Of a stretch of DNA of 64,000 nt, positions 172 through 60,780 are shown piece by piece. Origin of the DNA: Candidatus Magasanikiibacteriota bacterium (GTDB lineage Bacteria; Patescibacteriota; Patescibacteriia; Magasanikbacterales; UBA922); contig JBAYJP010000002.1 in NCBI GenBank assembly GCA_041665025.1, forward strand, positions 64,691-128,690. The letters are read 5' to 3'. The translations under genes and the position numbers were made by a program. The notes beneath the pieces are model-generated. The model had not been told where the DNA came from. It ran no database searches and worked only from the letters and a program-made list of their open reading frames with translations. Numbering within the stretch: position 1 is the first letter of the stretch; the number at the start of each line of letters is the position of its first letter.

Positions 172-173
172 TT

Positions 174-1823: not shown

Positions 1824-1827
1824 ATAT

Positions 1828-2619
1828 ATGGGTAAATACCTTGCTGAATTCAAGTTCAATATACAAGCATCATTCGCTTATCGCGGTGTAATAATATTAT
1901 GGATCATAGTAACGTTTCTTCAGGTTGCGGTGCTTCCATTTGTCTGGCTTTCCGTATATGGAACTCAAGATAGTATCGTAGGTTTTAGCAAAAGCATGAT
2001 GATAACCTACTTTGTCCTCATACCATGTATAGACGTGCTCGTGCAAAGTTGGGCTGACTTTGAGATAAAAGATGATATAAAAGAAGGCAGATTGAATACC
2101 TTCCTTATTAAACCTATCAATTACTTGCTTCGCGTGTTCTGGGTGGAAAATGGATGGAAAGTCTCACGCCCATTTATTGTCATATTGATTGTGCTGCTTC
2201 TATATCCCTTTATACACACGTATTTTCAACTCTCATTGCACGCACGCCTCGTGTGGATCTTACCGGCAATCATTGCGTCGAGATTCCTCAATTTTCTTAT
2301 TTCAAGCATTATTGGCATGGCAGCTTTCTGGACAGTACGAAGCAATTGGGCTTTACAAATCTGGTGGGCACTGCAAACATTAGCTGCAGGATATGTCGCC
2401 CCGCTTAGTTTTTATCCGCCAAATATCCAAAAAATTATTTCATATACTCCCTTCCCCATGTTGCTTCAAACGCCTATCAATATTATTCTTGATAACATTT
2501 CAACAGAACAAATTGTGAGACAACTATTATTAGCTTCTCTATGGATTATCATACTATTAATAATATCAAATTTTCTATGGAAAAAAGGGGTAAGAAAAAC
2601 AGAAGGTATAGGTATGTAA
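1828..2619 (+). CDS. ABC-2 family transporter permease, type A (module 2)
   Basis: Paralog of 174..965. Start set at MGKYLAEFK (parallels MGKYSTTFK of module 3). ORF-track prefix MLCVTCYLIREY derives from the repeat. Confidence 0.7.
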   Translation: MGKYLAEFKFNIQASFAYRGVIILWIIVTFLQVAVLPFVWLSVYGTQDSIVGFSKSMMITYFVLIPCIDVLVQSWADFEIKDDIKEGRLNTFLIKPINYLLRVFWVENGWKVSRPFIVILIVLLLYPFIHTYFQLSLHARLVWILPAIIASRFLNFLISSIIGMAAFWTVRSNWALQIWWALQTLAAGYVAPLSFYPPNIQKIISYTPFPMLLQTPINIILDNISTEQIVRQLLLASLWIIILLIISNFLWKKGVRKTEGIGM

Positions 2620-2620
2620 T

Positions 2621-3412
2621 ATGAAAAACAAATACCTCAAAATTCTCTCACGCACGTTCTCAAACAGTATTTCAGAATTTTTTATGTATCGCGCGGATTT
2701 TTTCTTTCGAATCTTTATGGGATTGCTGTGGAGTACCACGAGCCTTGTCATTGTTGAACTTATTTTCTACCATACCCCGAGCCTGGACGGTTGGTCTCAA
2801 TCAGATATTTTACTTCTGTATATAACGCTCAATCTTGCATTTGTAGTACAGGATGTATTGACAAACTCAATATTTGAACTGAGTAGCCATATTGCCGAAG
2901 GAAGGTTTGATTTTATCATTATTAAACCAATAGATTCACAGTTCTTTGCAATGTTCAATAGGCCAGATCCCGGAGCGTTACTCTTTTTTTTCACATACAA
3001 TATTCCACTCATATATGGACTCTACCTACACTCTGACTCACCCATACATTGGTTATATTTTCCTTTATATATACTGCTGATTTTGGCTTCAAATATATTG
3101 TGGATGCTCATGCGTACTATTATCATGACATTAAATTTCTGGTGGCAGAGGCTTGATAATATTGGCCAAATTTTAAATTCCATGCAAGAAATAGGCAGAT
3201 ATCCCATATCAATTTACCCTCGACCGCTAAAAATTATTTTCTACACCATATTCCCTATCGCCTTCTCAGGTGTTGTACCCGCGGAGGTCTTGCGTGGAAA
3301 TATATCATGGGTCTCTCTAATTGGAATGTTTATTGTGCTCTGTATCCTATCTCTATTTTCCCGTTTTCTTTGGAAAAAAGCTATTAGAAATTATACGAGT
3401 GCGTCCAGCTAG
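2621..3412 (+). CDS. ABC-2 family transporter permease, type B (module 2)
   Basis: 263 aa. Shares QxLxxxxxIGRYPxSIYP and C-terminal NYTSASS with the other type-B paralogs. Confidence 0.7.
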   Translation: MKNKYLKILSRTFSNSISEFFMYRADFFFRIFMGLLWSTTSLVIVELIFYHTPSLDGWSQSDILLLYITLNLAFVVQDVLTNSIFELSSHIAEGRFDFIIIKPIDSQFFAMFNRPDPGALLFFFTYNIPLIYGLYLHSDSPIHWLYFPLYILLILASNILWMLMRTIIMTLNFWWQRLDNIGQILNSMQEIGRYPISIYPRPLKIIFYTIFPIAFSGVVPAEVLRGNISWVSLIGMFIVLCILSLFSRFLWKKAIRNYTSASS

Positions 3413-3470
3413 ACACGTAACACATAACAAACGAACTTTTTGTTATGTGTTACGTGTTATTTGATACGTG
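3413..3470. repeat. ACGTG-family heptamer palindrome (R3)
   Basis: Near-perfect 19-bp hairpin 'acacgtaacacataacaaa / tttgttatgtgttacgtgt', followed by 'tatttgatacgtg'. Confidence 0.8.
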
Positions 3471-3474
3471 ATGT

Positions 3475-4266
3475 ATGGGTAAATATTCCACCACATTCAA
3501 AAATTCCCTATCCGTCTTTATACAGTACCGGTTGAATTTGGGTTTAATTTTAGTGAGTCAATTAGTAAGTCTCAGCGGCTTAGTTTTTTTGTGGCTCTCC
3601 ATATATTCATCGGGTCAACAGATGGGAAACTATGGACTGCAAGAGATTATTACCTACTATGTACTCGTCACGCTCATCGCAACGATTATTGGGGATGGCA
3701 TTGGGATGGCATTTGATGTTGTGGAAGATATAAACCGGGGAGAAATAATACACTACCTGCTTAAACCTTTTTCTTATGTAAAATATCGATTTTTAACGCT
3801 CGTCGGAGCTATTACTATCAATCTTATGTTTATGGCGCCTCTTATAATTATAGGTGGGTACCTCATGCGGCAGTCTTTTTCCTTTCCCAGTGCAAGCGGT
3901 TGGGTATATTTTTGTATTACCCTGTCTTTTGCAATATTATTTGAATTTCTCATTTTTATGCTAGCTTCACTATCTTCTTTTTGGGTAGTCCGAGGAAGCA
4001 GTTTTATATATGCCACGATACTAATCACTGGATTATTTGATGGATCCCTCATTCCACTCGACTTATTTCCTTACTGGGCATATCACATTACAAGCTATCT
4101 GCCATTTCAATTCATAATTTTTACACCCATCCAAGCTTTTCTGGAAAATATCTATAGCCCAGCAAAATTATTTTCTGTAGCAATGGTATGGATTATTATT
4201 CTGCTTTTACTATTACTATGGGTATGGAAAAGAGGCGTAAAAAAATTAGAAGGGGTAGGAAGATAA
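3475..4266 (+). CDS. ABC-2 family transporter permease, type A (module 3)
   Basis: 263 aa paralog. C-terminal KRGVKKLEGVGR. Confidence 0.7.
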   Translation: MGKYSTTFKNSLSVFIQYRLNLGLILVSQLVSLSGLVFLWLSIYSSGQQMGNYGLQEIITYYVLVTLIATIIGDGIGMAFDVVEDINRGEIIHYLLKPFSYVKYRFLTLVGAITINLMFMAPLIIIGGYLMRQSFSFPSASGWVYFCITLSFAILFEFLIFMLASLSSFWVVRGSSFIYATILITGLFDGSLIPLDLFPYWAYHITSYLPFQFIIFTPIQAFLENIYSPAKLFSVAMVWIIILLLLLLWVWKRGVKKLEGVGR

Positions 4267-4267
4267 T

Positions 4268-5056
4268 ATGTTAAAATATTTTCGATTATACAAAATATTT
4301 TTCAAAATCAATTTCATGAAAGACATGACATACCGGGGCAACTTCTTTTTTGGCTGTACCCTCACTATTTTTGAGTCTGTCATATCATTTTTAATAATAA
4401 CGATTATCTACAGCCACATACGGAGCATCTCTGGCTGGAGTTATGAGGATACACTAGTACTTACGGGTATAAACATGCTTTCAATTAGCTTTGGATGGCT
4501 TTTCTACAGAGGAGGTTTGAGTGACCTAGACAGAGTAGTCAATCGGGGTGACTTTGATTGGATGCTTGTAAAGCCAATAGATACACAATTTTTATCTACC
4601 GTTAATAGAATAGACATCGAGGATGGATCCCGTTCGTTAGTAGGATTTGCGATCATTGTTTATGGCATGACAGGAACAAAATTGTTCGATGTCTGGTATC
4701 TATTTCCTTTATGTATTATTACATTTTTATGTGGGCAAGTAGTGTTATACGCAGTTTTTTTAATTTTTAAAACCGTAACATTCAAATCTATACAAGGCTG
4801 GGCGACAAATGGCATTGCACATCGATTTCAACAACTCGCACAATACCCTACTGATATTTACAAAGGAATAGTGCGCGTCATATATACATACATGTTGCCT
4901 TTGATCTTTGTCGCAACAGTTCCTGCAAAAATACTTACCGGAAAATTTACGTGGCAACTATGTGCAGGTTCTCTCATTGCAGCAATACTCAGCTTTATCA
5001 TCTCACGAACAATCTGGAAATTTGCAGTGAAAAAATATAGTAGTGCATCATCTTAG
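4268..5056 (+). CDS. ABC-2 family transporter permease, type B (module 3)
   Basis: 262 aa paralog. C-terminal KKYSSASS. Confidence 0.7.
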   Translation: MLKYFRLYKIFFKINFMKDMTYRGNFFFGCTLTIFESVISFLIITIIYSHIRSISGWSYEDTLVLTGINMLSISFGWLFYRGGLSDLDRVVNRGDFDWMLVKPIDTQFLSTVNRIDIEDGSRSLVGFAIIVYGMTGTKLFDVWYLFPLCIITFLCGQVVLYAVFLIFKTVTFKSIQGWATNGIAHRFQQLAQYPTDIYKGIVRVIYTYMLPLIFVATVPAKILTGKFTWQLCAGSLIAAILSFIISRTIWKFAVKKYSSASS

Positions 5057-5136
5057 CACGTAGCACGTACCACATACCAAAACCGATTGATATGTGATAC
5101 GTGTTATGTGATACGTGTTATGTGCTATGTGTTATG
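5055..5136. repeat. ACGTG-family heptamer palindrome (R4)
   Basis: 'agcacgtagcacgtaccacatacc ... atatgtgatacgtgttatgtgatacgtgttatgtgctatgtgttatgg'. Confidence 0.8.
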
Positions 5137-5187
5137 GAAAATTTACTAAAAAACGCTAAAATGCTATAATTCACCTCGTCATAACTA

Positions 5188-6183
5188 ATGTATATGCCTA
5201 TTATCAGCGTAAACAACCTCTCCAAAACCTACGAGTACTACAAAAAGCAGGCGGGTTTATGGAATTCAGTGAAAAGTTTGTTTCATCGTGAAAAGCTCTT
5301 TACAGAAGCGGTGAAACAAGTTAACGTCACTATAGAGGAGGGAGAATTGGTTGGGTTCTTAGGCCCCAATGGTGCAGGAAAGACAACAACGCTCAAAATG
5401 CTCTCTGGCATTCTTTATCCAACATCAGGAGAAGCAACCGTGCTTGGATATACACCGTGGAAACGCCAAAAAGAATTTCAAAAGCAATTTGCCCTTGTCA
5501 TGGGACAAAAAAATCAGTTATGGTGGGATTTGCCAGCCATGGAAAGTTTTATTTTGAACAAAGAAATATACGAGGTGCCCGATGCTGAGTTCAAAGAAAC
5601 GCTCGATGAATTAACTGAACTGCTTGATATCAAAGACATCTTGGATGTCCAGGTACGCAAACTTTCACTGGGCCAACGGATGAAATGCGAACTGGTCACC
5701 GCGCTCCTCCACTCCCCAAAAGTATTATTTTTGGATGAGCCTACAATTGGACTCGATGTCGTTTCTCAAAACAATATCCGACAATTTTTGAAAAAATATA
5801 ACACGACCAAAAAAACAACGATTATCCTCACTTCCCACTACATGGAAGATGTGGAAGCACTGTGCAAGAGAGTTGTTATTATCAATCATGGACAGGTCAT
5901 GTATGATGGCGATCTACATGAATTGATTAATACCTATGTTGACCACAAAGTGCTCGAGGTAACATTTACTGAAGACGTGACGCGAAAGACATTTGAAAAA
6001 ATGGGGCGCATAAAAGAATACACGGAAAGGCGTATTGTCCTTGAAGTGCCAAAAGCTGAAGCAAAAAAAGTCGCGACCAAAATGCTTTCCAAATTGCCTA
6101 TTGATGATATACTTATCAATGAACCTAATATCGACGACGTGATACGCACCATCTTCCAACGCGAAAAACCACACAGCACATAG
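5188..6183 (+). CDS. ABC transporter ATP-binding protein (partner of the ABC-2 permeases)
   Basis: Walker A GPNGAGKTT, ABC signature LSLGQRMK, Walker B LFLDEPT, H-loop TSHYMED. Start could be the MPIIS ATG at 5194. Confidence 0.85.
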   Translation: MYMPIISVNNLSKTYEYYKKQAGLWNSVKSLFHREKLFTEAVKQVNVTIEEGELVGFLGPNGAGKTTTLKMLSGILYPTSGEATVLGYTPWKRQKEFQKQFALVMGQKNQLWWDLPAMESFILNKEIYEVPDAEFKETLDELTELLDIKDILDVQVRKLSLGQRMKCELVTALLHSPKVLFLDEPTIGLDVVSQNNIRQFLKKYNTTKKTTIILTSHYMEDVEALCKRVVIINHGQVMYDGDLHELINTYVDHKVLEVTFTEDVTRKTFEKMGRIKEYTERRIVLEVPKAEAKKVATKMLSKLPIDDILINEPNIDDVIRTIFQREKPHST

Positions 6184-6272
6184 CACATATCACGTAACAC
6201 ATAGCATATATCACATAACAAAACACCATGGTCCAATTGTCTGATGTGTGATATGTGTTACATGTTACGTGA
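6173..6272. repeat. ACGTG-family heptamer palindrome (R5)
   Basis: 'cacagcacatagcacatatcacgtaacacatagcatatatcacataaca ... gatgtgtgatatgtgttacatgttacgtg', closing the transporter block. Confidence 0.8.
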
Positions 6273-12937: not shown

Positions 12938-13513
12938 TTACTTTGATAATAATTTCAAACTTTCTCTAAGCAAAACTCCCGCATCTTTTCCTTCAGAATC
13001 TAAATTATTTACCACTCTACGAGCTTCTTCTCTACTATAACCCATATTCACTAATGCCTCAACTACTTCACCCAAAACGCCACTCGCCTGTTCCCTGTTC
13101 CCTGTTCCCTGTTCCCTGATCTTTGATTTCAAATCCACAACTATCCTCTCTGCTGTCTTTTTTCCAATTCCACTCACACCCGTCAAATAAGCCACATCTC
13201 CCCTGCCAATCGCAGATTGAATATGTTCAAGACTTCCGAGACCCATGATATTCATGGCAGTACGCGGCCCAACACCATTGACTGAAATGAGAAGTTCAAA
13301 AAATTCTTTTTCTTCTAACGTCTTAAACCCAAATAATTCCATGGCATTTTCTGAAACTTTTAAATATGTATAGACTGTTACTTCTTGCCCATTTTTTAAT
13401 TCAACAAAAAAAGGCGCGGATACATGTACTTCATATCCAACGCCTGATTGTGTAAACAAAACAATGATATTATTTCTTTGAAAAATTATTGTACCAAAAA
13501 GTGCAGAGATCAT
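12938..13513 (-). CDS. ruvA: Holliday junction DNA helicase subunit RuvA
   Basis: 191 aa. OB-fold N-domain, twin helix-hairpin-helix (ELLISVNGVGPRTAMNIM / LTGVSGIGKKTAERIV) and C-terminal RuvB-interaction domain. Contains an in-frame (ccctgtt)x4 microsatellite in the domain II-III linker (13081-13110, encoding GTGNREQ). Confidence 0.9.
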   Translation of the reverse strand: MISALFGTIIFQRNNIIVLFTQSGVGYEVHVSAPFFVELKNGQEVTVYTYLKVSENAMELFGFKTLEEKEFFELLISVNGVGPRTAMNIMGLGSLEHIQSAIGRGDVAYLTGVSGIGKKTAERIVVDLKSKIREQGTGNREQASGVLGEVVEALVNMGYSREEARRVVNNLDSEGKDAGVLLRESLKLLSK

Positions 13514-23960: not shown

Positions 23961-26927
23961 CTACTTTTCCACAGAAAGGCTAAGAGACATTCCATCCAGC
24001 TTGACTTCAATTCCGCCAGCATGTTTTTTCAAATCTGTCGCAAGCGTTCCTTTTTTTATTTCATCGCCATATTCCTTAAACACTGTGTTTAGAAGTTCAT
24101 CAGACGTCTCATAGCCTACCACAACCGAGTCTTGAATAGTTAACTTTTGTTCTTTGCGCATTTGATTGATGGTGCGGACAATTTCTCGGACAAGGCCTTC
24201 TTTTTTAAGCTCACCATTAATCTCTGTATTCAACGCAACCTTTAAACTACCGTCTTCTTTCATTATCCAATTTTTTTCTAAATCTACAGCTTCACTTATT
24301 TCCTTTATATTTAATTCTTCAGAAATAATAACCTTCAATTCGTTTGAAAATTGAAAATTAAAAATTGAAAATTGTGAAAGTGGCTGTCGTACTTTTATAC
24401 CTGCTTCAGCACGTAACGCAAGACCCATCTCAACAACCTTCCTCACCTGTGCCATATCAATTATAACTTGATCATCTATCATTTTTTCATCAACCTCTGG
24501 CCACTTTTCTAAATGCACACTTTCACAATCAGTTCCTTGTTCGTTGTTCCTTGTTCCTTGGTACACTTTTTCTGCAATAAAAGGTGTAAATGGAGCCATT
24601 ACTTTGGACAAAGTTAGAAGCACTTCGCGCAAAACTGATGTCGCAACTTCCACGTCTTCGGAATTGTCGCCTTTGAAACGATCACGTGAGCGACGAACAT
24701 ACCAAGTTGACAGTTCATTAATAAATTCAAGAATTGGTCTACTTGCTGCAGTCATATTATAACCTTCCATGGCAACTGTCACATCTTTAACTAGTATCTG
24801 CAATTTGGCGAGAATCCATTTGTCCAATACACTCAAAGATTTCGAATTTCGAATCCTTAGACCCGGACTTAGGGTTTCGAATTTCGAATTTTTCGATCCG
24901 TACATCTCATAAAAAGCTACAACATTCCATAAGGTGTTATTCAATTTGTTAAAAATGTCTTTAACCTCGCGATCATTAAAATATAAATTATCTGCCTGCA
25001 TCACTACACTACTCATAAGATAATAACGCAAAGCATCTACGCCATATTCTTCAATTATTTTCCATGGATCAGTATAATTCATTTTTGACTTAGACAATTT
25101 TTCTCCTTTTTCATTCAAGATAGTACCCGTACATACCACATTTTCAAAACTAACATTATCAAACAATAAAACGGCCATGACATGCATGTAATAAAACCAC
25201 GCGCGCGTTTGAGCGATGTATTCTGCGATATACTGGCCTGGGAATCTTTTTTTGAAGGTCTCAACATTTTCAAATGGATAATGAAATTCAGCAAAAGGCA
25301 TAGACGCTGATTCTACCCAACAATCTATGACTTCTGGAATGCGTGTCATTTCTCCTCCACATTTCTCGCATTTCAGCTTGATTTTGTCCACGTTGTGCTT
25401 GTGCAAATCTAATTCTTCGACTTTGTCTGTTTTATAGACTTCATCAAAATTAATTGCTTTTTCTTTTAGCTCTTGTACACTCCCAATACATACCGTTCCG
25501 TCACATTCTTTATTATTACATTTCCAAAATGGCAAGGGGGTTGCCCAAAAACGATTACGGGAAATATTCCAGTCTGGCGCGGTTTCCAAAATATTCAAAA
25601 ACCGTCCGTGCTTAAGATTGTCTGGGAACCAATTAACTTTTTCGTTAAATTCAATAATTCTTTTTTTCTTGTCTTGGATATTTATAAACCATGCAGAAAT
25701 AGCGTTGTAAAAAAGTTGTGTATCACAACGCCAGCAATGTGGGTATGAGTGTGTATGACTCTGTCGTGCAAACAACAATCCGCGATTTTCCAAATCATCT
25801 TTAATCGCTTTCTCTGCTTTTTTGAAATATTGACCTCGTATAAACTCCGGAGATAATTCATTGAAATGTCCTTTGTCATCAAGCAAGGGAACCACCGGCA
25901 AACCAATTTTCAACCCTAAGTTATAATCGTCCTCACCATATACAACAGCGGTATGTACCACGCCAGTTCCTTCTTCAGTCGTCACAAAATCCGCGCTAGT
26001 CACATACCACGCTTTTTTGCCCGTTTCGTGAATAGCGGGAATATCAAATAATGGTTCGTATTCCAAACCTACTAAATTTCCACCCAATACCTGCTGTACT
26101 ACTTCAAACTCCTTTCCTTCAACATAATTCATCAATCTATCCTTGGCAATAATATAGTGATCTTCTCCCAATTTTACGAGGCTATATTCAATTTTTTCTC
26201 CTACTGCCAATGCCACATTTCCCGGCAATGTCCACGGCGTAGTCGTCCATGCTAGAATATATGTATTTTCCGGCAACTCAATCTTTTGATCTTTTGATCT
26301 TTTGATCTTAAATTTCGCGGTTACCGTCTCTTCTTTAATATCCTTATAACTATCGTCCATCGCAATTTCTGCTTTTGAAACCGGCGTTTCACAGTGCGGA
26401 CAATACATAAGTACTTTTCTGCCTTCGTAAATCAAACCTTTATCCCAAATTGTTTTGAGAGACCACCATACGGATTCCATGTACACAGGATCCATGGTCT
26501 TGTACGCATTATCAAACTCAACCCAGCGGCCAATTCTATTGACCATTTTTTTCCACTCCTTTGTGTACATGAGAACTTTTGATTGACATGCTTCATTAAA
26601 TTTATCCACACCCAAATTTTCTTCAATCTGTTTTTTTCCTGAAACTTTCAATTCTTTTTCGACCAAATTTTCAATTGGTAACCCATGACAATCCCACCCC
26701 CAACGCCTTCGCACACGATAACCTTTCATAGTCCAGTAGCGAGGGACTACATCTTTAATTACTGAACTCAAGATATGCCCGTAATGAGGCAAGCCTGTCG
26801 CAAACGGAGGTCCATCATAAAATACATACGGATTATTTTCCGGACGTTCACTCACTGATTTTTCAAAACACTGGTGCTCGTCCCAGTACTTCAAAATTTC
26901 TTGTTCGTTTTGGTTGGCATTGTACAT
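23961..26927 (-). CDS. ileS: isoleucine--tRNA ligase (type 2, archaeal/eukaryote-like)
   Basis: HIGH region 'YDGPPFATGLPHYGHIL', KMSKS 'LSKSKMNY', 988 aa. Contains several in-frame heptamer microsatellites (24346-24372, 24536-24556, 24838-24895, 26282-26312). Confidence 0.9.
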   Translation of the reverse strand: MYNANQNEQEILKYWDEHQCFEKSVSERPENNPYVFYDGPPFATGLPHYGHILSSVIKDVVPRYWTMKGYRVRRRWGWDCHGLPIENLVEKELKVSGKKQIEENLGVDKFNEACQSKVLMYTKEWKKMVNRIGRWVEFDNAYKTMDPVYMESVWWSLKTIWDKGLIYEGRKVLMYCPHCETPVSKAEIAMDDSYKDIKEETVTAKFKIKRSKDQKIELPENTYILAWTTTPWTLPGNVALAVGEKIEYSLVKLGEDHYIIAKDRLMNYVEGKEFEVVQQVLGGNLVGLEYEPLFDIPAIHETGKKAWYVTSADFVTTEEGTGVVHTAVVYGEDDYNLGLKIGLPVVPLLDDKGHFNELSPEFIRGQYFKKAEKAIKDDLENRGLLFARQSHTHSYPHCWRCDTQLFYNAISAWFINIQDKKKRIIEFNEKVNWFPDNLKHGRFLNILETAPDWNISRNRFWATPLPFWKCNNKECDGTVCIGSVQELKEKAINFDEVYKTDKVEELDLHKHNVDKIKLKCEKCGGEMTRIPEVIDCWVESASMPFAEFHYPFENVETFKKRFPGQYIAEYIAQTRAWFYYMHVMAVLLFDNVSFENVVCTGTILNEKGEKLSKSKMNYTDPWKIIEEYGVDALRYYLMSSVVMQADNLYFNDREVKDIFNKLNNTLWNVVAFYEMYGSKNSKFETLSPGLRIRNSKSLSVLDKWILAKLQILVKDVTVAMEGYNMTAASRPILEFINELSTWYVRRSRDRFKGDNSEDVEVATSVLREVLLTLSKVMAPFTPFIAEKVYQGTRNNEQGTDCESVHLEKWPEVDEKMIDDQVIIDMAQVRKVVEMGLALRAEAGIKVRQPLSQFSIFNFQFSNELKVIISEELNIKEISEAVDLEKNWIMKEDGSLKVALNTEINGELKKEGLVREIVRTINQMRKEQKLTIQDSVVVGYETSDELLNTVFKEYGDEIKKGTLATDLKKHAGGIEVKLDGMSLSLSVEK

Positions 26928-26951: not shown

Positions 26952-27027
26952 ATGTACGAAATACGAAAACTGCGAAAGGTGCGAAAAATATATTTCGAAT
27001 ATTTCGTAGTTTTCGTATTTCGTACAT
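26952..27027. repeat. 76-nt near-perfect hairpin (TTCGAAT/GTACGAAATACG heptamer arms)
   Basis: 'atgtacgaaatacgaaaactgcgaaa ... tttcgtagttttcgtatttcgtacat' with one mismatch, about 25 nt upstream of the ileS ATG. Confidence 0.8.
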
Positions 27028-27306: not shown

Positions 27307-27759
27307 ATGTACACCAACCCCCTTTTCATCGCCTCTGATCACGGCGGTTATCAACTCAAAAAACGAGTTATACGTTATATTGAAAATGAACTCAAAGGTA
27401 AGGTCGAAGATCTTGGACCACATGAACATGTTGAAACTGATGACTATCCAGACTACGTCATACCGCTTGCGCATAAAGTCGTTGAAACACAAGGACGCGG
27501 TATTGTAATATGTCGCAATGGAGTTGGGGTTTGTATTGCCGTAAATAAAGTGAAAGGAATAAAATGTGGTATTGGGTATAATATTGCTGCAGCAGAAAGT
27601 ATGATGAAGGATGATAACACAAATATTATTTCCCTTGCTGCGGATCATCTGTCCGAAGATCACGCCATGGCAGTGGTAAAAAAATGGTTAGAGACTGAGT
27701 TTAGTGGAGAAGAAAGACACGTCCGGAGATTGAAAAAGGTTGAAGAAATAGAGAAATAA
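27307..27759 (+). CDS. rpiB: ribose-5-phosphate isomerase B
   Basis: 150 aa RpiB/LacAB family: 'FIASDHGGYQLK', 'GIVICRNGVGVCIAVNKVKGI'. Confidence 0.85.
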   Translation: MYTNPLFIASDHGGYQLKKRVIRYIENELKGKVEDLGPHEHVETDDYPDYVIPLAHKVVETQGRGIVICRNGVGVCIAVNKVKGIKCGIGYNIAAAESMMKDDNTNIISLAADHLSEDHAMAVVKKWLETEFSGEERHVRRLKKVEEIEK

Positions 27760-27761
27760 AA

Positions 27762-27866
27762 ATTCAAAACGCAAAACTCAAAAATCAAAATTTGCAACTA
27801 AAAACTAATAAACTTTAAGTTTTAAGTTTACATTTTGAGTTCTGAGTTTTGAACTTTGAGTTATTT
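27762..27866. repeat. 'TTTGAGTTTTGA' palindromic intergenic element (family 2)
   Basis: 'aattcaaaacgcaaaactcaaaaatcaaaatttgcaactaaaaacta...ttttgagttctgagttttgaactttgagtta', near-identical to the copy at 28548. Confidence 0.8.
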
Positions 27867-27867
27867 T

Positions 27868-28515
27868 ATGCAAATCATCCCCTCAATCCTCGTTCAATCT
27901 AAAGAAGAATTTCTTCGTGAAATAAAGTCTGTCCAAAAATCAGTAGATATGGTTCAGCTTGATATCGCTGATGGAATTTTTGTACCACACACAACGTGGA
28001 TGGATCCAGATATAGTAAAAAAGAATGCAAAAATTGATGTGGAACTTCATCTCATGGTTAGTGAACCTCTGAAAGAATTAAAAAAATGGGCCACAGTCGA
28101 ACAAGTACAGCGCATTTACGTACATTTTGAATCCGAAGAAAACTTGAAAAATATTATGCCCACACTCCATGCGTATGGATGGGATATTGGTATCGCATTA
28201 AATCCAGACACACCAACAAGTGTACTTGATCCATATATAAAAGAAATCAAAGCAGTGATGTTTATGGGAGTAACTCCGGGAAAACAGGGACAAAAACTGA
28301 TTCCTGAAGTGCTAGAGAAGATGGTTGATTTTATTTCCAAAAATCCAAACATATTTACCGCAATCGACGGAGCTGTAAATGAAGAAACGCTGACAGATAT
28401 TGTAAAAACGGGTGTTAAAGCTATTTGCCCAGGGAGTGCAATATTTAAAAATGAGAGAGAACCGAGGGAGAACGTAAAAAGAATGGGGGAAATAATTAAC
28501 AGGTTGACAGTTTAA
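27868..28515 (+). CDS. rpe: ribulose-phosphate 3-epimerase
   Basis: RPE family ('QLDIADGIFVPH', 'HLMVSEP', 'MGVTPGKQGQ'). ORF-track TTG start lies inside the repeat; first ATG (MQIIPS) used. Confidence 0.8.
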   Translation: MQIIPSILVQSKEEFLREIKSVQKSVDMVQLDIADGIFVPHTTWMDPDIVKKNAKIDVELHLMVSEPLKELKKWATVEQVQRIYVHFESEENLKNIMPTLHAYGWDIGIALNPDTPTSVLDPYIKEIKAVMFMGVTPGKQGQKLIPEVLEKMVDFISKNPNIFTAIDGAVNEETLTDIVKTGVKAICPGSAIFKNEREPRENVKRMGEIINRLTV

Positions 28516-28547
28516 TTAGCTCGGGATACAATTTCTGCACTCTGTGA

Positions 28548-28656
28548 AAATTCAAAACGCAAACCTCAAAAGTCAAAACTATAGCTAAAAACTAACAAGC
28601 TTTACGTTTTGATTTTACATTTTGATCTTTGAGTTTTGAATTTTGAGTTATCTAAT
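28548..28656. repeat. 'TTTGAGTTTTGA' palindromic intergenic element (family 2)
   Basis: 'aattcaaaacgcaaacctcaaaagtcaaaactatagctaaaaacta...ttttgatctttgagttttgaattttgagtta'. Confidence 0.8.
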
Positions 28657-29631
28657 ATGAAAAATAACGACATTCTCGACCTGGTCATCATTGGTGCCGC
28701 CGCTGCTGGTTCAGCAGCTGCTGTCTATGCTGCACGCAGAAATCTTAATTTTGTTGTGGTTACGAAAGATATTGGGGGTGAAGTGGCACTATCTGGCGAA
28801 GTAGAAAATTGGCCTGGTACCGTGCATACGACTGGCTTTAAACTCGCACAAGATTTTCATGAGCACATGAAATCATACAATGTACCCATAGAAGAAGGAT
28901 ACGAGGTTGTAAGTATACAAGCAGTAAAAAATTACCATATAGTAACAACGAAAAATAGCCTGGGCGAAAAAAAAACATATACCGCAAAAGCAGTTATTAT
29001 CTCAAGTGGAATCCATCCGCGCCTTTTGAATATTCCTGGCGAAAAAGAATACTACGGCAGAGGTGTAACATATTGTACCGTATGCGATGGTCCCCTATAT
29101 AGAGGAAAAGTGACTGCAACAGTGGGCGGTGGAAATTCTGCTCTCGAGTCAGCACTCATGATGGCTGGTATTGCCACAAAAGTATATTTGATAACCAAAT
29201 ATCCAAATACCAAAGAAAATAACTGGGGATTCCCAAAAGGGGAAAATATTTTGATTGAAAAAATAAAAGAACATGCAAATATAGAAGTGATATACAACGC
29301 AAATACAAAAGAAATAGTAAACGATGGAAGTTTTGTGAGTGGGCTGATATATGAAGATACCGATTCAAAAGAAGAAAAGAGAATTGATATCCAGGGAGTG
29401 ATGGTACACGTCGGACAAATCCCTAATTCAAATTTTGTATTATGCGGATCAAAAAATACGATCGGTGAGATAGAAGTAGATACCAAGTGCAAGACAAATT
29501 GCCCGGGTATTTTTGCTGCCGGAGATGTTACCAATGTTCCATTTAAACAAATTGCCATTGCCGCAGGACATGGAGTAACGGCAGCCTTGAGTGCAATAGA
29601 GTATATAAATAAGTGGAAAGAAGAAGTGTAA
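28657..29631 (+). CDS. trxB: thioredoxin-disulfide reductase-like FAD-dependent oxidoreductase
   Basis: FAD motif 'DLVIIGAAAAGSAAAVYAARR', redox CxxC 'CTVCDG', NAD(P) motif 'TVGGGNSALE'. Start set at MKNNDILD; the upstream ATG lies in the repeat. Confidence 0.75.
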   Translation: MKNNDILDLVIIGAAAAGSAAAVYAARRNLNFVVVTKDIGGEVALSGEVENWPGTVHTTGFKLAQDFHEHMKSYNVPIEEGYEVVSIQAVKNYHIVTTKNSLGEKKTYTAKAVIISSGIHPRLLNIPGEKEYYGRGVTYCTVCDGPLYRGKVTATVGGGNSALESALMMAGIATKVYLITKYPNTKENNWGFPKGENILIEKIKEHANIEVIYNANTKEIVNDGSFVSGLIYEDTDSKEEKRIDIQGVMVHVGQIPNSNFVLCGSKNTIGEIEVDTKCKTNCPGIFAAGDVTNVPFKQIAIAAGHGVTAALSAIEYINKWKEEV

Positions 29632-33893: not shown

Positions 33894-33904
33894 ACAGACA
33901 AAGA

Positions 33905-33950
33905 TTAAAAGATTGTAAGATTAGAAGATTATATCGATTTGTTATCACTC
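33905..33950. repeat. 'AAGATTAAAAGATT' heptamer repeat arm (family 4, left arm)
   Basis: 'aagattaaaagattgtaagattagaagatt', inverted partner at 34300..34352. Confidence 0.75.
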
Positions 33951-34303
33951 TTCAGACTGTTAATAAATAAATTCAAGTCTTTTGCCAAATCACAGTATTT
34001 TGTATTTAAATCCACAAAAATATCTTCTGCTATATATTTACGTCCAGATGCAACGGCTAAATGACTCCTTGTTTCTGTAATTTCTGCCCGTGCAATATAT
34101 AGAGTACGAATTTTATCTGCATAATAATATCTTCCATGTGCCTCGGCTATGTTGGCAACTATGGAATTAGCGGATCGACGAATTTGAGAAGTCAGTGCAT
34201 ACAATTCAGTTGGCGGAAATTCATCAGTTGCATCATATATCTTCATCAGTAAAGTATACCCGTTTTTCCAAATATCCAATTGATAAAAATCTTTATATCC
34301 CAT
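33929..34303 (-). CDS. four-helix-bundle protein (23S rRNA intervening-sequence protein family, TIGR02436-like)
   Basis: 'GYKDFYQLDIWKNGYTLLMKIYDATDEFPPTELYALTSQIRRSANSIVANIAEAHGR' matches the family consensus. Confidence 0.75.
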   Translation of the reverse strand: MGYKDFYQLDIWKNGYTLLMKIYDATDEFPPTELYALTSQIRRSANSIVANIAEAHGRYYYADKIRTLYIARAEITETRSHLAVASGRKYIAEDIFVDLNTKYCDLAKDLNLFINSLKSDNKSI

Positions 34304-34352
34304 AATCTTTTCGCCAAAATCTTCTAATCTTACAATCTTTTAATCTTCACAC
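34300..34352. repeat. 'AATCTTTTAATCTT' heptamer repeat arm (family 4, right arm)
   Basis: 'aatcttttcgccaaaatcttctaatcttacaatcttttaatcttc', reverse complement of the left arm; together they bracket the four-helix-bundle gene. Confidence 0.75.
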
Positions 34353-34393
34353 GAAGATAGTATACCAAACCCTTCACACTACTCCAAACTTTT

Positions 34394-35092
34394 CTAACGG
34401 TCTTTAAACGCCATATACTCTTTCCACCTCAGATACAACTCCCTCGTTGCATGCAAATCACCTGCACAATACTGCGCAATTTCTTTGTATTTTCCCTGTT
34501 CAAACATGGGCTTTACATCATGACCAGTGACACCGTGAGATTTGGGAGATTCTATGCCAAATGCTTTGCAATAAAAATCAAGATTAAACTTGCGCGTGCT
34601 GCTGTAATACGTGAGATGTTCAAGCAAATCTACATGTACATCCGAACTATACCGATAGGGCATGAGATTTTTACTTGGTTTAACCTTATGTATGGCAGAA
34701 CGCATCATAAGCACGGGGCAATCAAATCCACGCCCGTTAAACGTAACAAACTTATTGGCATACGAAATCGCTTTCCAAAATTTTTCTAGAATTTCTCTTT
34801 CTGTCCCTGGGACATACTTTATATTTCCATCTTCCCATTCAACGACTTCCTGTTCACGTGATTGGAAATAAACCGCTCCTTTCTGCGTTTCAACAGACAG
34901 CATGCCTATTGCCACGATTTCATTCGTCGGCGCCCACAGTGCCATTTGATCCTTTATCTTTTCTCTTTCTTCCTCATCTTCAGCAAACTTCAAAAGATAC
35001 TGCTGCTGGGCTTCATCAAGGGAATCAAAAACTTTCGGAATTGTCTCGATGTCGAAGATGATGGTGTTCATAAAATTAAACTCAAAATTCAA
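34394..35092 (-). CDS. RNase H-like 3'-5' exonuclease (DnaQ/PolB-exo superfamily)
   Basis: Exo motifs I 'IFDIETIP', II 'FNGRGFDCPVL', III 'YCAGDLHATRELY'. Confidence 0.6.
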   Translation of the reverse strand: MNFEFNFMNTIIFDIETIPKVFDSLDEAQQQYLLKFAEDEEEREKIKDQMALWAPTNEIVAIGMLSVETQKGAVYFQSREQEVVEWEDGNIKYVPGTEREILEKFWKAISYANKFVTFNGRGFDCPVLMMRSAIHKVKPSKNLMPYRYSSDVHVDLLEHLTYYSSTRKFNLDFYCKAFGIESPKSHGVTGHDVKPMFEQGKYKEIAQYCAGDLHATRELYLRWKEYMAFKDR

Positions 35093-35184
35093 AGTTCAAA
35101 ACTCAAAACTACATTTTAAAACTTTAAAATTTGTGAATAGTTTTGGGTTAAAAATTTGATTTTTGACCTTTGAGTTTTGAGCTT
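35078..35184. repeat. 'TTTGAGTTTTGA' palindromic intergenic element (family 2)
   Basis: 'aactcaaaattcaaagttcaaaactcaaaac...ttttgacctttgagttttgagctt'. The right arm encodes the last ~11 codons of the SpoU methyltransferase. Confidence 0.75.
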
Positions 35185-35642
35185 ATGAGATACATCGCAA
35201 TCCCCGCGGCAACACTCACATTCAAACTCTCTTTCTTTCCATACATCGGTATATGCACGACTTTATCGCATAGTTTCAAAATATTTTCAGCGATTCCATC
35301 AACTTCATTACCCACCACTAGGGCGATATCACTGTCAATCTTCCAATCTTTTAGTCTTTCAATCTTCTCGCTCGTTTCATTCTTCTCCAACCCCACAATC
35401 ATAACTCCTTTCTTTTTTAAAGAAATAATCAATCGTTTTAAATCTTTCCTTTGTTCCCACGGCATCCATGTCTCTGCACCGAGCGAAACCTTGTCTATCT
35501 GTGGTCGAGGAGGACAAGGAGTATACCCAACTAAAAAAATCTTTGTAACCCCACATGCGTCGGCAGTTCGAAACATGGCCCCCACATTATGGCACGAGCG
35601 GATATCGGGTAAAATGAGATAAAATTGTCTTTGTTTATTCAT
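35148..35642 (-). CDS. SpoU/TrmH-family (SPOUT) RNA 2'-O-methyltransferase
   Basis: 'LILPDIRSCHNVGAMFRTADACGV' and 'VGNEVDGIAENI' motifs of TrmH/TrmL class. Confidence 0.75.
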   Translation of the reverse strand: MNKQRQFYLILPDIRSCHNVGAMFRTADACGVTKIFLVGYTPCPPRPQIDKVSLGAETWMPWEQRKDLKRLIISLKKKGVMIVGLEKNETSEKIERLKDWKIDSDIALVVGNEVDGIAENILKLCDKVVHIPMYGKKESLNVSVAAGIAMYLISSKLKGQKSNF

Positions 35643-36745: not shown

Positions 36746-37032
36746 ATCTTGTATAGATTACTAATTTATCCTATTGAAACCTTTGGCACAAATAAAAAAA
36801 CAGCTACTGCAATGGCAATACCTGCTACTAAATAAAGATAGACCCACGAAAAATCCGCCTGCTGTACGCCGAAATCCCCTTGTTTGTGTTGCATATGTGT
36901 TTTTTAATATTAACTCTACTGACCGTGATCAATTAGGCCAATAAAATCAATATTATGTATACAGTATAGCAGAAAAAAGTACGTTTGTCAATAGATTTTT
37001 TATTGATTTTTAATAAAAAGTGTCGTACAATA

Positions 37033-37107
37033 TACACGTACCACGTATCACATAACACATATCAAATATTTAAATTGATACGTGATACGTGCTATGTGAT
37101 ACGTGAA
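37033..37107. repeat. ACGTG-family heptamer palindrome (R6)
   Basis: 'acacgtaccacgtatcacataacacatatcaaatatttaaattgatacgtgatacgtgctatgtgatacgtg', ending 3 nt before the recombinase ATG. Confidence 0.8.
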
Positions 37108-42029: not shown

Positions 42030-42140
42030 TAAAGATTAAAAGATTGCAAGATTAAAAGATTGAAAGATTAAAAGATTTTGAAATACTGTAATTTGGTATC
42101 CAATCACAATCTTATAATCTTTCAATCTTTTAGTCTTTCT
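42030..42140. repeat. family-4 heptamer inverted repeat pair ('AAGATTAAAAGATT' / 'AATCTTTCAATCTT'), no gene enclosed
   Basis: 'aaagattaaaagattgcaagattaaaagattgaaagattaaaagatt...aatcacaatcttataatctttcaatcttttagtcttt'. Confidence 0.75.
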
Positions 42141-42205
42141 CTTTTGTATCTATGACCTTAAAACTAAGGACGACGTCTGGAAGATATCACCCCCCATGCA
42201 ACGCG

Positions 42206-44149: not shown

Positions 44150-44200
44150 AATTATTCTAATTGTTCTAATTATACTAATTATTCTAAATAAAACTTAATA
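44150..44200. repeat. 'TAATTAGAATAATT' heptamer repeat arm (family 3)
   Basis: 'aattattctaattgttctaattatactaattattctaaa', inverted partner at 44598..44655; together they bracket the four-helix-bundle gene. Confidence 0.75.
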
Positions 44201-44202
44201 AA

Positions 44203-44592
44203 CTAACTATTTTTATTTTTAACCTTGTGATAAATTGCATTAAATATCAGATGCAATTGGCGAGCTTCATCCCACAAAACTCTAGCTTCATTTTTTAGAT
44301 CTTCATCTCCAAAGCTCACAGCAAGCATTCTCAAAAAATGTTTTACCTCTCGAGTTTCTTTTTTACAAATACCTATTTTATGCACGAAATCTTTAGATGA
44401 TTCTGCATCGTCTGCCTCGCAATAATTCGCCCCTATACTCGTACCTGCCGCAACAAATTGTGGTATCAGCCGCTCTGTCACTTTATTTACTAAAATTTTC
44501 TTAGCAAATTTGACAACATGTTCTCCAAACTTCGCTGTTCTCTCTTCGAGGTCATATTTTCTTAATGTTGTGCCTGTTTCCTCCTTATTCAT
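44203..44592 (-). CDS. four-helix-bundle protein (23S rRNA intervening-sequence protein family)
   Basis: 129 aa. 'LIPQFVAAGTSIGANYCEADDAESSKDFVHKIGICKKETREVKHFLRML' matches the family's conserved 'S.GANI.EA......DF.....IA.KE..E..YWL'-type core. Second copy of the type at 33929. Confidence 0.6.
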   Translation of the reverse strand: MNKEETGTTLRKYDLEERTAKFGEHVVKFAKKILVNKVTERLIPQFVAAGTSIGANYCEADDAESSKDFVHKIGICKKETREVKHFLRMLAVSFGDEDLKNEARVLWDEARQLHLIFNAIYHKVKNKNS

Positions 44593-44597
44593 TCCTT

Positions 44598-44655
44598 AGG
44601 TTAATTAGAACAATTAGTATAATTAGAATAATTTACGTAATTAGGTGAATTCAAA
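44598..44655. repeat. 'TTAGAATAATTAG' heptamer repeat arm (family 3, inverted)
   Basis: 'ttaggttaattagaacaattagtataattagaataatttacgtaattaggtgaattc'. Confidence 0.75.
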
Positions 44656-45082: not shown

Positions 45083-45094
45083 ATGAAAATGAAT

Positions 45095-45200
45095 TATTCT
45101 AATTAACCTAATTGTTCTAATTATTCTAAACAATTTCTAATATGGTTTTTAATTTAGGGGTTTGTTTAGAATAATTAGTATAATTAGAATAATTTTTGTA
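45095..45200. repeat. family-3 heptamer inverted repeat pair
   Basis: 'aattattctaattaacctaattgttctaattattctaaa' ... 'tttagaataattagtataattagaataatt', a ~40-bp-arm hairpin with a 25-nt loop. Confidence 0.8.
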
Positions 45201-49349: not shown

Positions 49350-49470
49350 TTATTTTAAAAACAATTATTCTAATTAACCTAATTGTTCTAATTATTCTAA
49401 AAATAACTGGCTCTACTTCCCTATTAACTACCTTTTTTTAGATTCAACAATATTTTAGAATAATTAGTAC
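49350..49470. repeat. family-3 heptamer inverted repeat pair
   Basis: 'aattattctaattaacctaattgttctaattattctaaaaa ... ttttagaataattagtacaattaaaataatt'. Confidence 0.8.
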
Positions 49471-49552
49471 AATTAAAATAATTTGGGAACAACAAACTGA
49501 AAACAAATTTCATTATAAAATACACCTTAATTCTTTGCGGTTGATATCCGTA

Positions 49553-50429: not shown

Positions 50430-51281
50430 TTATTTTTTTGAAAAATATAATGCTGTCTTCAACAAACTCTCGGGGGTCCCTGTATCAAAATACTTGCCCT
50501 CATATTCATACGCATACATTGTTTCATTGTGCGCCATCGCGTTCACGGCATCAGCCACCCATATCTCTCCGGCTCTACTCTTTTTTGTTTTTTCCAAATA
50601 AGACCAAATCTTTGGAGTAAAGATGTAGCGCATACCACCCACAATAAAACCTTCGGGTGAAACCTCTTCTATGGAGGGTTTTTCCTTAATGCAGTCTACT
50701 TCAAAAGCATACTTTGATAATTTTGAATTTTGAATTTTGAATTTTGAATTCTTTGTATAAACATTTCCATACTTCGTCATCGCTTGTTTATCTTTCAACC
50801 GCTGTACCCCAATAACTGGCACGCCTGTCGCTTCGAAAACCTCTTTTACTTGTTTTACCGCAGGAATTTTTGAATCGATAATGCTATCACCATCTGAAAA
50901 TGCAAATGGTCTATTGCCACAAAGTTTTTTGGCGCACAACAATGCATGGCCATTACCAAGCGGTTTGTTTTGATACGTATAAAAAAATCTTACCTTTTTT
51001 GTAAGATCAATAAGAGACTGTATGCGATCAAGCTTATTTTGTTTTTTGAGTGTGGCTTCTAATTTTTTATCACGCGTGAAATGATCTTTTATTGCTTGCT
51101 TTGTCGGACTCGTAACCAATATGATATCTCGTATACCGCTCTGCGCCATCTCTTCTACAATATACTGAATAACCGGCTTATCAAGCACAGGCAACATCTC
51201 TTTTGGTACAGCTTTTGTCGCCGGCAAAAAACGGGTTCCAAGCCCTGCGACTGTGATGACTCCCGTACGGACGCTTTGCAT
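50430..51281 (-). CDS. galU: UTP--glucose-1-phosphate uridylyltransferase-like sugar nucleotidyltransferase
   Basis: 'GVITVAGLGTRFLPATKAVPKEMLPVLDKPVIQYIVEE'. Contains an in-frame (ttttgaa)x4 microsatellite at 50712-50750. Confidence 0.75.
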   Translation of the reverse strand: MQSVRTGVITVAGLGTRFLPATKAVPKEMLPVLDKPVIQYIVEEMAQSGIRDIILVTSPTKQAIKDHFTRDKKLEATLKKQNKLDRIQSLIDLTKKVRFFYTYQNKPLGNGHALLCAKKLCGNRPFAFSDGDSIIDSKIPAVKQVKEVFEATGVPVIGVQRLKDKQAMTKYGNVYTKNSKFKIQNSKLSKYAFEVDCIKEKPSIEEVSPEGFIVGGMRYIFTPKIWSYLEKTKKSRAGEIWVADAVNAMAHNETMYAYEYEGKYFDTGTPESLLKTALYFSKK

Positions 51282-58090: not shown

Positions 58091-58180
58091 GACGTAAGTT
58101 AACTAAGTAACTAAGTTATCTAAGTAAAAGAGTAATTGTTAATCTTTCAATCTTGAAATCTTTTAATCTTCAATCTTGGC
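58091..58180. repeat. composite heptamer repeats ('TAAGTTAACTAAG' plus family-4 'AATCTTTCAATCTT')
   Basis: 'taagttaactaagtaactaagttatctaagtaaaag...ttaatctttcaatcttgaaatcttttaatcttcaatctt' fill the rpsF-ssb spacer. Confidence 0.7.
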
Positions 58181-60448: not shown

Positions 60449-60744
60449 TGCCGAGGGCCAGGATTGAACTGGCGACACAAGGATTTTCCTTTTGACTTAT
60501 ATTTCTATAAGGATCGGACTATATCTTCATCCCGATTAAATCGGGAGTTGGGCGCTTATGCATGATTATTGTTGATACTCACACGCTAGTCTCTACACCT
60601 TTTCTGGGAGTCTAATCGCCAGAACTTGGCTCGGGATTGCCTTTTTAATAAGGTTTCCCCGAATTCACCCAAATTTCTCATTCTAAATTACTTTAGAAGG
60701 GACCGAAAACCAGTCCTCTGCTCTACCACTGAGCTACCTCGGCA
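60449..60744 (-). tRNA. tRNA-Phe (anticodon GAA) interrupted by a ~220-nt intron in the anticodon loop
   Basis: Exon 1 (60744->60711) GCCGAGG-TA-GCTCAGTGGTAGAGC-A-GAGGA-CTG. Exon 2 (60487->60449) AAAA-TCCTT-GTGTC-GCCAG-TTCAATC-CTGGC-CCTCGGC-A. Spliced product matches bacterial tRNA-Phe nearly base for base. Confidence 0.75.
60488..60710 (-). ncRNA. group I-like self-splicing intron in tRNA-Phe
   Basis: 5' exon end GGACU can pair with intron 'GGUCC' (P1, U.G at splice site). Internal 'AGACUA'/'GAGACUAGC' and downstream 'UAGUCC' resemble P7 strands. Intron ends in G before exon 2. No ORF inside. Confidence 0.5.
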
Positions 60745-60780
60745 TTTAACGTGGTAAAACAAATTCCTTTAGTCAAGGAA

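Follow-up and report, generated by a model that had tools for sequence, protein, structure and literature searches.

Four-helix-bundle protein genes of a Magasanikbacteria contig and their relatives lie between inverted arrays of short tandem units

Two genes for small four-helix-bundle (4HB) proteins, each enclosed by inverted arrays of short tandem units, were analysed in a 64,000-nucleotide (nt) stretch of DNA (hereafter the window; 39% G+C) from a Candidatus Magasanikiibacteriota bacterium (GenBank assembly GCA_041665025.1, contig JBAYJP010000002.1, positions 64,691 to 128,690 of the forward strand). The two genes, A and B, had been assigned from the sequence to the protein type encoded in intervening sequences (IVSs) of 23S rRNA, and profile searches bore this out. 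Gene A matched PF05635 (23S_rRNA_IVP) with 105 bits (E=2.9e-30) and TIGR02436 ('four helix bundle protein', also known as 'S23 ribosomal protein') with 100.6 bits, and gene B matched the same profiles with 40.1 bits (E=4.7e-10) and 57.1 bits, all of these scores being above the curated cut-offs of 33.8 bits for PF05635 and 24 bits for TIGR02436. The family motif GxxRxxxSxxxNxxE (Lin 2006; Zhang & Ye 2013) was present in A as R43-S47-N51-E54, and in B as S52-N56-E59 with the arginine missing; residues N51, E54 and E77 of A were invariant in a broad alignment of homologues. Among PDB entries, 2GSC (E=2.7e-12) and 2RLD, each with five chains, also matched the sequence of A; the solved relatives are homopentamers, and from sequence similarity the A protein may form a pentameric ring as well. 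Neither open reading frame (ORF) contained a transposase or nuclease domain detectable by profile searches, and a tblastn search with 86 homologues revealed no extra or degenerate 4HB copy in the window or in the approximately 9 kb beyond it on each side.

The inverted arms reported to bracket each gene were confirmed, although they are shorter than originally given (30-42 nt instead of 40-55 nt) and are not built of heptamers. Tandem Repeats Finder (TRF) identified a unit of 8 nt, AAAGATTA, around gene A and a unit of 9 nt, AATTATTCT, i.e. CTAATTNNN, around gene B. The arms of cassette A are 37 nt long and 92% complementary, with a perfect core of 30 nt, and those of cassette B are 42 nt long and 83% complementary. 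When bracket scores were calculated for the 67 genes called in the window, A scored 30, an ABC ATPase gene 27 and B 24, the others reaching 14 at most, with a median of about 8. The ABC ATPase gene (5188-6183) was rejected as a bracketed cassette: its flanks are two separate local hairpins, both of TGATACG type, and it scored as bracketed because these hairpins share one unit type; its homologues near other 4HB genes were generic ABC ATPases. Unlike these flanks, the arms of cassettes A and B have no local partner. The proposal that the arms form a stem with the ORF in its loop agreed with the predicted folds, in which the ORF lay in the loop of a terminal stem in both cassettes (A, -136.8 kcal/mol, z=-3.9, about 37 continuous pairs; B, z=-2.1). 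The cassettes also lie outside rRNA, as proposed: no rRNA match was detected in the window, and both are located between protein-coding genes, B amid an array of about 12 PF18895 T4SS_pilin paralogues. Gene A and the same upstream neighbours recurred in an independent assembly (L002), whose contig stops 27 nt past gene A and thus offers a single arm for comparison.

The same bracketing was found across the gene family. For the A type, 51 genome loci encoding relatives of gene A at 38-72% identity were collected, from metagenome-assembled genomes (MAGs) labelled Patescibacteria, Pirellulales, Phycisphaerae, Gamma- and Deltaproteobacteria, Elusimicrobiota and WOR-3, and an intact ORF was taken as bracketed when inverted arms with a score of at least 11 flanked it directly. 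This was the case for 38 of 43 intact ORFs, whereas random brackets with an identical geometry, placed in these loci, reached the score in 14 of 860 cases and the other genes of the loci in 17 of 278, several of the latter being second 4HB copies. The B subfamily contained 7,860 proteins at E<=1e-5, with all named matches from Patescibacteria, and in a sample of 80 metagenome loci 72 of the 75 usable ORFs were bracketed, against 17 of 712 random brackets. For both types combined, 110 of 118 loci from independent assemblies were bracketed, compared to about 2% of the random brackets. In closed plasmids of cultured cyanobacteria, inverted arms of 7-8-mers were present at nine of 12 loci, among them GGGTGTA/TACACCC in Calothrix, AGCAGGGG/CCCCTGCT in Nostoc, TCAGGAG/CTCCTGA in N. 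punctiforme and GGGAAAA/TTTTCCC in Geminocystis; therefore, the bracketing is not an assembly artefact. These data show that 4HB genes from several phyla, including those of cultured cyanobacteria, are systematically embedded between inverted short-unit arrays; bracketing characterises the gene family and is not peculiar to this genome.

The type of unit was found to go with the 4HB subfamily. A-type arms had unit periods of 7-9 nt, mostly 8, with AAGATTA units in Magasanikbacteria, GAATTAGTG in Pirellulales and Phycisphaerae and GTTAACC in one Falkowbacteria MAG. The B-type arms of 76 loci carried three to four exact CTAAT cores upstream and three to four ATTAG cores downstream of the ORF, at a spacing of 9 or 7 nt, and the reversed handedness was almost never seen, while the cyanobacterial arms consisted of purine-rich heptamers. 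Paralogous cassettes sharing one locus had different unit types in three further loci (L017, L023 and L100), as have A and B in the window.

The position of the cassettes relative to their neighbours was also analysed. Upstream neighbours were co-directional in 38 of 41 cases and downstream neighbours in 37 of 42, compared to a baseline of 129 of 189 (Fisher p=6e-5), with a median gap of about 50 nt on either side. About 23 nt lie between the 5' arm and the ATG of the ORF, whose stop codon marks the start of the 3' arm (median -0.5 nt), and the ATG of the next gene lies within a few nt of the 3' arm end. None of the 131 metagenome and genome homologue loci contained rRNA signature motifs. The G+C content of the ORFs followed that of the host (r about 0.74), and that of the arms was 0.20-0.25 irrespective of the host (r about 0.1-0.17).

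The three arm pairs described as 'empty' in the original prediction do exist, but to regard them as vacant sites would be too simple. The window contains at least 14 ORF-less tandem-unit hairpins (examples in Table 1), with loops of 7-50 nt and units of the types TGATACG, AAAAYNC, CGAAATA, AAAGATTA and CTAATTNNN; those of A and B type had the same handedness as the cassettes. According to the gene calls of the contig and direct reading, 1-9 nt separate the 3' arm from the following ATG in 10 of 14, whereas the 5' arm lies at a loose distance from the preceding stop codon (-42 to +75 nt), and in 12 of 16 window elements the 3' arm ends at most 9 nt before an ATG, with a unit period of 7-9 nt. 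The number of these hairpins, their several unit types and their tie to the downstream start codon point to a role of their own. Two of the B-type hairpins have an arm of 39 identical nt (45092-45134 and 49363-49402), and the arms of a cassette and of an ORF-less hairpin share 34 nt at 94%. The spacer between the SpoU and RNase H-like genes contains a hairpin in the window and in two other loci (L003 and L005), its unit sequences being different in each and its end lying just before the ATG in all of them. The region of the cassette B 5' arm (44591-44633) and the hairpin arm at 45092-45134 enclose a pilin gene and pair over 43 nt at 86%, better than the arm with its own partner (42 nt, 83%), so alternative pairings that loop out different genes would be possible.

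An explanation in which nothing specific marks these genes, and the arms are common terminators or low-complexity repeats that arose by chance in an AT-rich genome, could draw on the abundance of short tandem repeats in the window (96 TRF rows) and on the high score of the ABC ATPase gene, yet it is extremely improbable. Chance and generic terminators around unrelated genes are both refuted by the control statistics given above, to which the cultured cyanobacteria can be added. No tandem-unit hairpin was called in a terminator scan, and canonical terminators, GC-rich and with a T-run, were located elsewhere in the window; the hairpin arms are AT-rich (G+C mostly 0.13-0.35, up to 0.48 in some of TGATACG type) and have no T-run. 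A scan of the window at the Rfam gathering thresholds yielded tRNAs and one group I intron and no hairpin family, and E-value scans of the hairpins gave sub-threshold matches to eukaryotic miRNA hairpins only, with no bacterial family.

Table 1. Location of the 4HB genes, their arms and other tandem-unit elements in the window
Feature	Position	Strand	Description
4HB gene A	33929-34303	-	124 aa; PF05635, TIGR02436
5' arm, cassette A	34311-34347	-	Four AAGATTA-type 8-nt units; ends ~14 nt before ATG 34303
3' arm, cassette A	33901-33937	-	Overlaps stop codon 33929-33931; 7 nt before ATG 33893 of the next gene
Extended -10-like motif TGGTATACT	34359-34367	-	Just upstream of the cassette A 5' arm; read directly, putative function
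4HB gene B	44203-44592	-	129 aa; PF05635, TIGR02436
5' arm, cassette B	44601-44642	-	CTAATTNNN 9-nt units in gene sense
3' arm, cassette B	44150-44191	-	AATTAG-type units in gene sense; 7 nt before ATG 44142 of the next pilin gene
A-type ORF-less hairpin	42031-42148	-	Arms 42031-42081/42104-42148; 22-nt loop; 9 nt before ATG 42021
B-type ORF-less hairpin	45092-45194	-	Arms 45092-45133/45162-45194; 28-nt loop; 8 nt before ATG 45083
B-type ORF-less hairpin	49363-49483	-	Arms 49372-49402/49453-49483; 50-nt loop; 16 nt before ATG 49346
ORF-less hairpin, AAACTCA-type 7-nt units	35077-35189	-	5 nt before ATG 35071; one gene upstream of cassette A; hairpin in the corresponding spacer of L003 and L005
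ORF-less hairpin, rpe/trxB-like spacer	28547-28649	+	7 nt before ATG 28657
ORF-less hairpin, AAAAYNC-type units	27754-27862	+	5 nt before ATG 27868; hairpin at the orthologous spacer of L047
ORF-less hairpin, TGATACG-type units	37030-37106	+	4 nt before likely ATG 37111 of a Xer-type recombinase gene
ORF-less hairpin, TGATACG-type	108-172	+	1-3 nt before ATG 174; first of five in spacers of the ABC-2/ABC ATPase array
Other four TGATACG-type hairpins, ABC-2/ABC ATPase array	1752-1822, 3413-3470, 5054-5136, 6170-6272		
Near-perfect palindrome, 76 nt, CGAAATA-type units	26952-27027	.	24 nt upstream of the ileS start codon

The elements share one anatomy, in which a 5' arm of three to six copies of a 7-9-nt unit is followed by a loop and by a 3' arm that is its inverted complement, the latter reaching in the ORF-bearing form from the stop codon to a few nt before the next ATG. 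The loop is either a stretch of 7-50 nt or a ribosome-binding region plus a PF05635 ORF of about 120 aa. As this layout resembles that of rRNA IVSs and is accompanied by the predicted folds, the cassettes were taken as IVS-type elements in mRNA spacers. In the interpretation that we favour, with a probability of roughly 0.45, A and B are the ORF-bearing form of palindromic tandem-unit spacer elements of the rRNA-IVS kind, located in mRNA spacers and probably co-transcribed and cut by RNase III. The element would be transcribed within its host operon, and the arms would zip into an AU-rich duplex of 30-45 bp that loops out the ORF and brings the flanking cistrons together. RNase III would most likely cut this stem, as it does in rRNA IVSs, and this cut would free the 4HB message and would also define the 5' end of the next cistron, whose leader would be the 3' arm.

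IVSs of 23S rRNA that contain an ORF occur in Leptospira and in Coxiella burnetii ('S23p'), inserted in helix 25 or 45, and IVSs formed by a hairpin alone, without an ORF, also exist. In Coxiella, the IVS forms a terminal stem of 28 bp in which cleavage by RNase III was demonstrated experimentally, and its S23p ORF is preceded by tandem GACAGAT heptamers (PMC4990558). The elements described here share with rRNA IVSs the PF05635-family ORF in the loop of a terminal-inverted-repeat stem, the tandem units directly upstream of this ORF, the occurrence of ORF-less forms and, as proposed above, a place within a host transcript. They differ from them in lying between protein-coding genes and, in the window and the 131 homologue loci, outside rRNA, in an ORF that is conserved like its neighbours rather than decaying, and in a 3' arm that abuts the start codon of the next gene.

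Several observations weigh against this interpretation, and arm complementarity seems to be kept at the level of DNA or motif and not through selection on RNA pairing. No energy asymmetry between sense and antisense strands, as G·U pairs would produce, was found in A cassettes (22 versus 16, p=0.59), B cassettes (36 versus 32, p=0.76) or ORF-less hairpins (7 versus 7); therefore, G·U-tolerant selection on the sense RNA was not detectable, and this test taken alone would slightly favour maintenance at DNA or motif level. When B arms were swapped across loci, they paired almost as well as the true partners (median 15 versus 16, p=0.03), so that their complementarity comes mostly from the shared motif, the core and handedness of which are conserved. 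Swapping in the AATTAG group of A had a weak effect (p=0.17), and covariation with the own partner was clear only in four syntenic A cassettes. The lack of G·U bias, the cross-locus pairing and the conserved core together fit arrays of protein-binding sites or palindromes maintained at DNA level. No rnc gene was seen in the available sequence, and a Pseudanabaena locus was flanked by direct rather than inverted repeats. Finally, the extended -10-like motif upstream of the cassette A 5' arm was identical in two syntenic loci (L003 and L005) and read TGCTATACT in a third (L006). This conserved TGnTATACT may be a promoter of cassette A itself, in which case read-through from the operon would not be required; a promoter scan revealed no enrichment and one weak promoter-like site inside a hairpin.

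The motif-like behaviour of the arms bears on a second explanation, a cognate regulator, in which the 4HB protein would bind units of its own type in RNA or DNA, autoregulate through the arms and control the genes located behind ORF-less hairpins of the same type. Models for such binding are TRAP, which binds spaced triplets, and operator arrays in general. The subfamily-specific core, present in exact copies at fixed spacing in the B loci, the different unit types of paralogous cassettes sharing one locus and the presence near each window cassette of ORF-less hairpins with its own unit type and handedness are what this explanation would predict. It would also fit the position of the 3' arms just before start codons with a loose distance upstream, the persistence of hairpins at orthologous spacers despite sequence turnover, and the five-chain PDB relatives; and both the absence of G·U bias and the compatibility of arms across loci are better suited to a motif than to stem conservation. 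However, we regard it as rather unlikely. No PF05635 protein is known to bind nucleic acids sequence-specifically, a regulator gene need not lie within its own operator hairpin, and rRNA-IVS copies have no downstream gene to regulate. Moreover, the unit types TGATACG, AAAAYNC and CGAAATA were not accompanied by a 4HB gene within the 82 kb examined, and the link between unit type and protein clade is explained equally well by the inheritance of arms and ORF together as one cassette.

Tandem heptamers near start codons have been described in other bacteria, such as the intergenic TAACTGA repeats of Beggiatoaceae (PMC4679880) and the TTTTGAA repeats of Nostoc, for which a binding partner was inferred (bioRxiv 10.1101/2022.06.06.494920), a point that also speaks for a regulator. 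Like the elements of the window, these repeats and those of the STRR type consist of tandem 7-nt units in intergenic positions and end at or just before start codons. In contrast, they were reported as mostly direct arrays with no link to PF05635 genes, whereas inverted array pairs with 4HB genes between them were found here, including in Nostoc, Calothrix and other cyanobacterial plasmids. We put forward, as a speculative and unlikely extension, that the PF05635 4HB proteins could be the partners of the 7-9-nt start-codon repeats of cyanobacteria (STRR type), Beggiatoaceae (TAACTGA) and Patescibacteria, each pentameric paralogue recognising its own unit type.

The original prediction regarded the elements as a mobile or excisable cassette system, and the comparison of orthologous sites supported one part of this view. 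In L012 and L047, a 4HB gene lies between homologues of the window genes 27856-28515 and 28636-29631 (rpe and trxB-like), the spacer of which contains only a hairpin in the window. The 4HB copy of L047 is decaying: it is truncated at the 5' end, and little of its 5' arm is left. This occupied/empty polymorphism shows by comparison that the ORF is gained or lost at a hairpin site over evolutionary time. Excision and active mobility were not borne out. No direct repeats indicative of a target-site duplication were seen by eye outside the arms of 35 well-defined cassettes, and the site of cassette A, between the RNase H-like gene and a 230-aa gene, was syntenic in three other species (L003, L005 and L006), with 4HB proteins 61-72% identical and thus conserved to a similar degree as their neighbours, a pattern that speaks for vertical descent with purifying selection. 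The arms of the four orthologous A loci differed from each other, the own partner being the best pairing in three of the four, and in L006 both arms had changed to a 7-nt period.

A third explanation, a mobile element at DNA level, would make the arms terminal inverted repeats with protein-binding sub-repeats, the 4HB cassette an autonomous form and the ORF-less hairpins derivatives like miniature inverted-repeat transposable elements (MITEs), moved by the 4HB protein, by a host recombinase or through hairpin or cruciform DNA. Presence and absence at an orthologous site next to a decaying copy, the strand-symmetric complementarity and arms that are AT-rich at any host GC are in line with it. 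So are the varied contexts of the B cassettes, since a neighbour in common with the window was found at only 13 of the 80 loci (no conserved functional neighbours of gene B were found in them, and few lie near pilin genes), and the identity of 53-60% between A-type proteins in MAGs labelled Pirellulales, Phycisphaerae, Proteobacteria, Elusimicrobiota and Patescibacteria, labels that may be unreliable. Two ORF-less copies share their 39-nt identical arm together with the same imperfections, and the left arm of the empty L047 hairpin is nearly identical to an arm of the occupied L012 cassette. Even so, this explanation appears quite unlikely. Neither a target-site duplication nor a clean empty site was found, the ORF lacks a transposase or nuclease domain, and cassette A and several hairpins keep their position across species while their sequence turns over. 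Furthermore, random transposition does not predict the orientation bias of the ORF or the closeness of the 3' arm to start codons. Both the regulator and the mobile element are compatible with the IVS-type model.

Other repeat families resemble these elements in part. Transposons and MITEs likewise have terminal inverted repeats, of which several dispersed near-identical copies were seen here, but no target-site duplication or element-encoded transposase accompanied them. Correia/NEMIS elements of Neisseria, ERIC/IRU and REP/BIME are hairpin-forming inverted repeats present in many copies in transcribed spacers, and the Correia hairpins are RNase III substrates that alter the expression of neighbouring genes. 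The many hairpin-forming copies in spacers are common to these families and the elements of the window. In contrast, the arms described here are arrays of 7-9-nt tandem units of several types with no target-site duplication seen, the long form encodes a 4HB protein instead of a transposase, and the position is tied to the downstream ATG. Integron cassettes are promoter-less small ORFs with an attC site, an imperfect inverted repeat, at the 3' end only, arranged in arrays beside intI. A small ORF oriented with host transcription and an inverted repeat capable of forming a hairpin are shared features, but this identity was rejected because the arms here bracket the ORF. The only tyrosine recombinase nearby, 2.7 kb away, is of Xer type: XerD/XerC gave its best scores, and its gene is found in synteny in related genomes.

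Homology between the Avd protein of diversity-generating retroelements (DGRs) and the PF05635-type family has been remarked (PMC10053308), and genes A and B belong to the same fold family. The matches to PF22296 (bAvd), which was weak, and NF033474 (24.4 bits) were below the cut-offs of 40 and 80 bits, and the genes were rejected as DGR Avd. No reverse transcriptase was found among the neighbours of genes A and B; template and variable repeats were not searched for.

In an earlier study, 18 4HB genes within cas loci were read as cas-associated (PMC3936711). In a Picosynechococcus PCC 7003 plasmid (L144), a 4HB gene lies between cas10 and cmr3, and in the Pseudanabaena galeata plasmid NZ_CP112875.1 (L136, 46052-46740) between cas6 and cas4. 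The latter gene is flanked by direct arrays, about 14 copies of AAAAGCT and about nine of AAAAGCC, with an inverted array further upstream. These cyanobacterial genes look like intercistronic insertions and not like cas-associated genes. The reading of 4HB genes located within operons changes with this, those of cas loci looking like intercistronic insertions.

To our knowledge, the PF05635/TIGR02436 family is a very large one of unknown function that, outside DGR Avd, is known only as the ORF of rRNA IVSs. We found no published description of non-rRNA 4HB genes as repeat-bounded cassettes, although coverage of the literature was incomplete. An uncharacterised 4HB family is now tied to unexplained tandem repeats at start codons, and both puzzles become testable. 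If the proposed relationships hold true, a single widespread system would comprise arm-ORF-arm cassettes, ORF-less hairpins and rRNA IVSs. This system would be a network for post-transcriptional regulation or else a mobile element of a new class that works without a conventional transposase.

Some further features of the arms and their sites were observed. In two Magasanikbacteria loci (L012, 740-800 and 1180-1235; L047, 3165-3290), every arm is split by a small internal hairpin, and that of the right arm varies between copies by paired changes (TTCAAC/GTTGAA versus TCCGAC/GTCGGA). The pattern suggests that these split arms could form a four-way junction rather than a simple stem. In two metagenome contigs (L109 and L112), a B-type cassette directly follows a gene homologous to the RNase H-like one (42% identity); the window has an A-type cassette at this place, and there may be a site preference.

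Tandem-unit arrays were also found in other arrangements. Upstream of ssb (ATG 58088), at 58095-58177 of the (-) strand, direct arrays of GAAAGATT (4.8 copies) and then GTTAACTTA (3.6 copies), as read in the sense strand, are present instead of an inverted pair; therefore, single arms of the A-type unit exist as well. Within intact genes, arrays of 7-8-nt units that were perfect or nearly so, with 3.6-4.6 copies, were located at 13087-13118, 50719-50750, 24344-24374, 24532-24560 and 26281-26309, the genes concerned being a 191-aa ORF (RuvA-like by eye), an NTP_transferase gene and ileS, which has three such sites. Tandem-unit arrays are thus not confined to spacers. The ABC ATPase gene closes an array (126-6272) in which ABC-2 permease paralogues form three successive pairs, and the pairs are divided by TGATACG-type hairpins that end 1-5 nt before the next ATG.

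The group I intron detected by Rfam (87.9 bits) is located at 60495-60723 of the (-) strand, where it interrupts a tRNA gene 58 nt downstream of a tRNA-Ala gene. The exons lie at about 60724-60760 and 60455-60494, and joining the flanks at several nearby splice points gave tRNA-Phe, with the anticodon GAA in some joins and AAA in most others.

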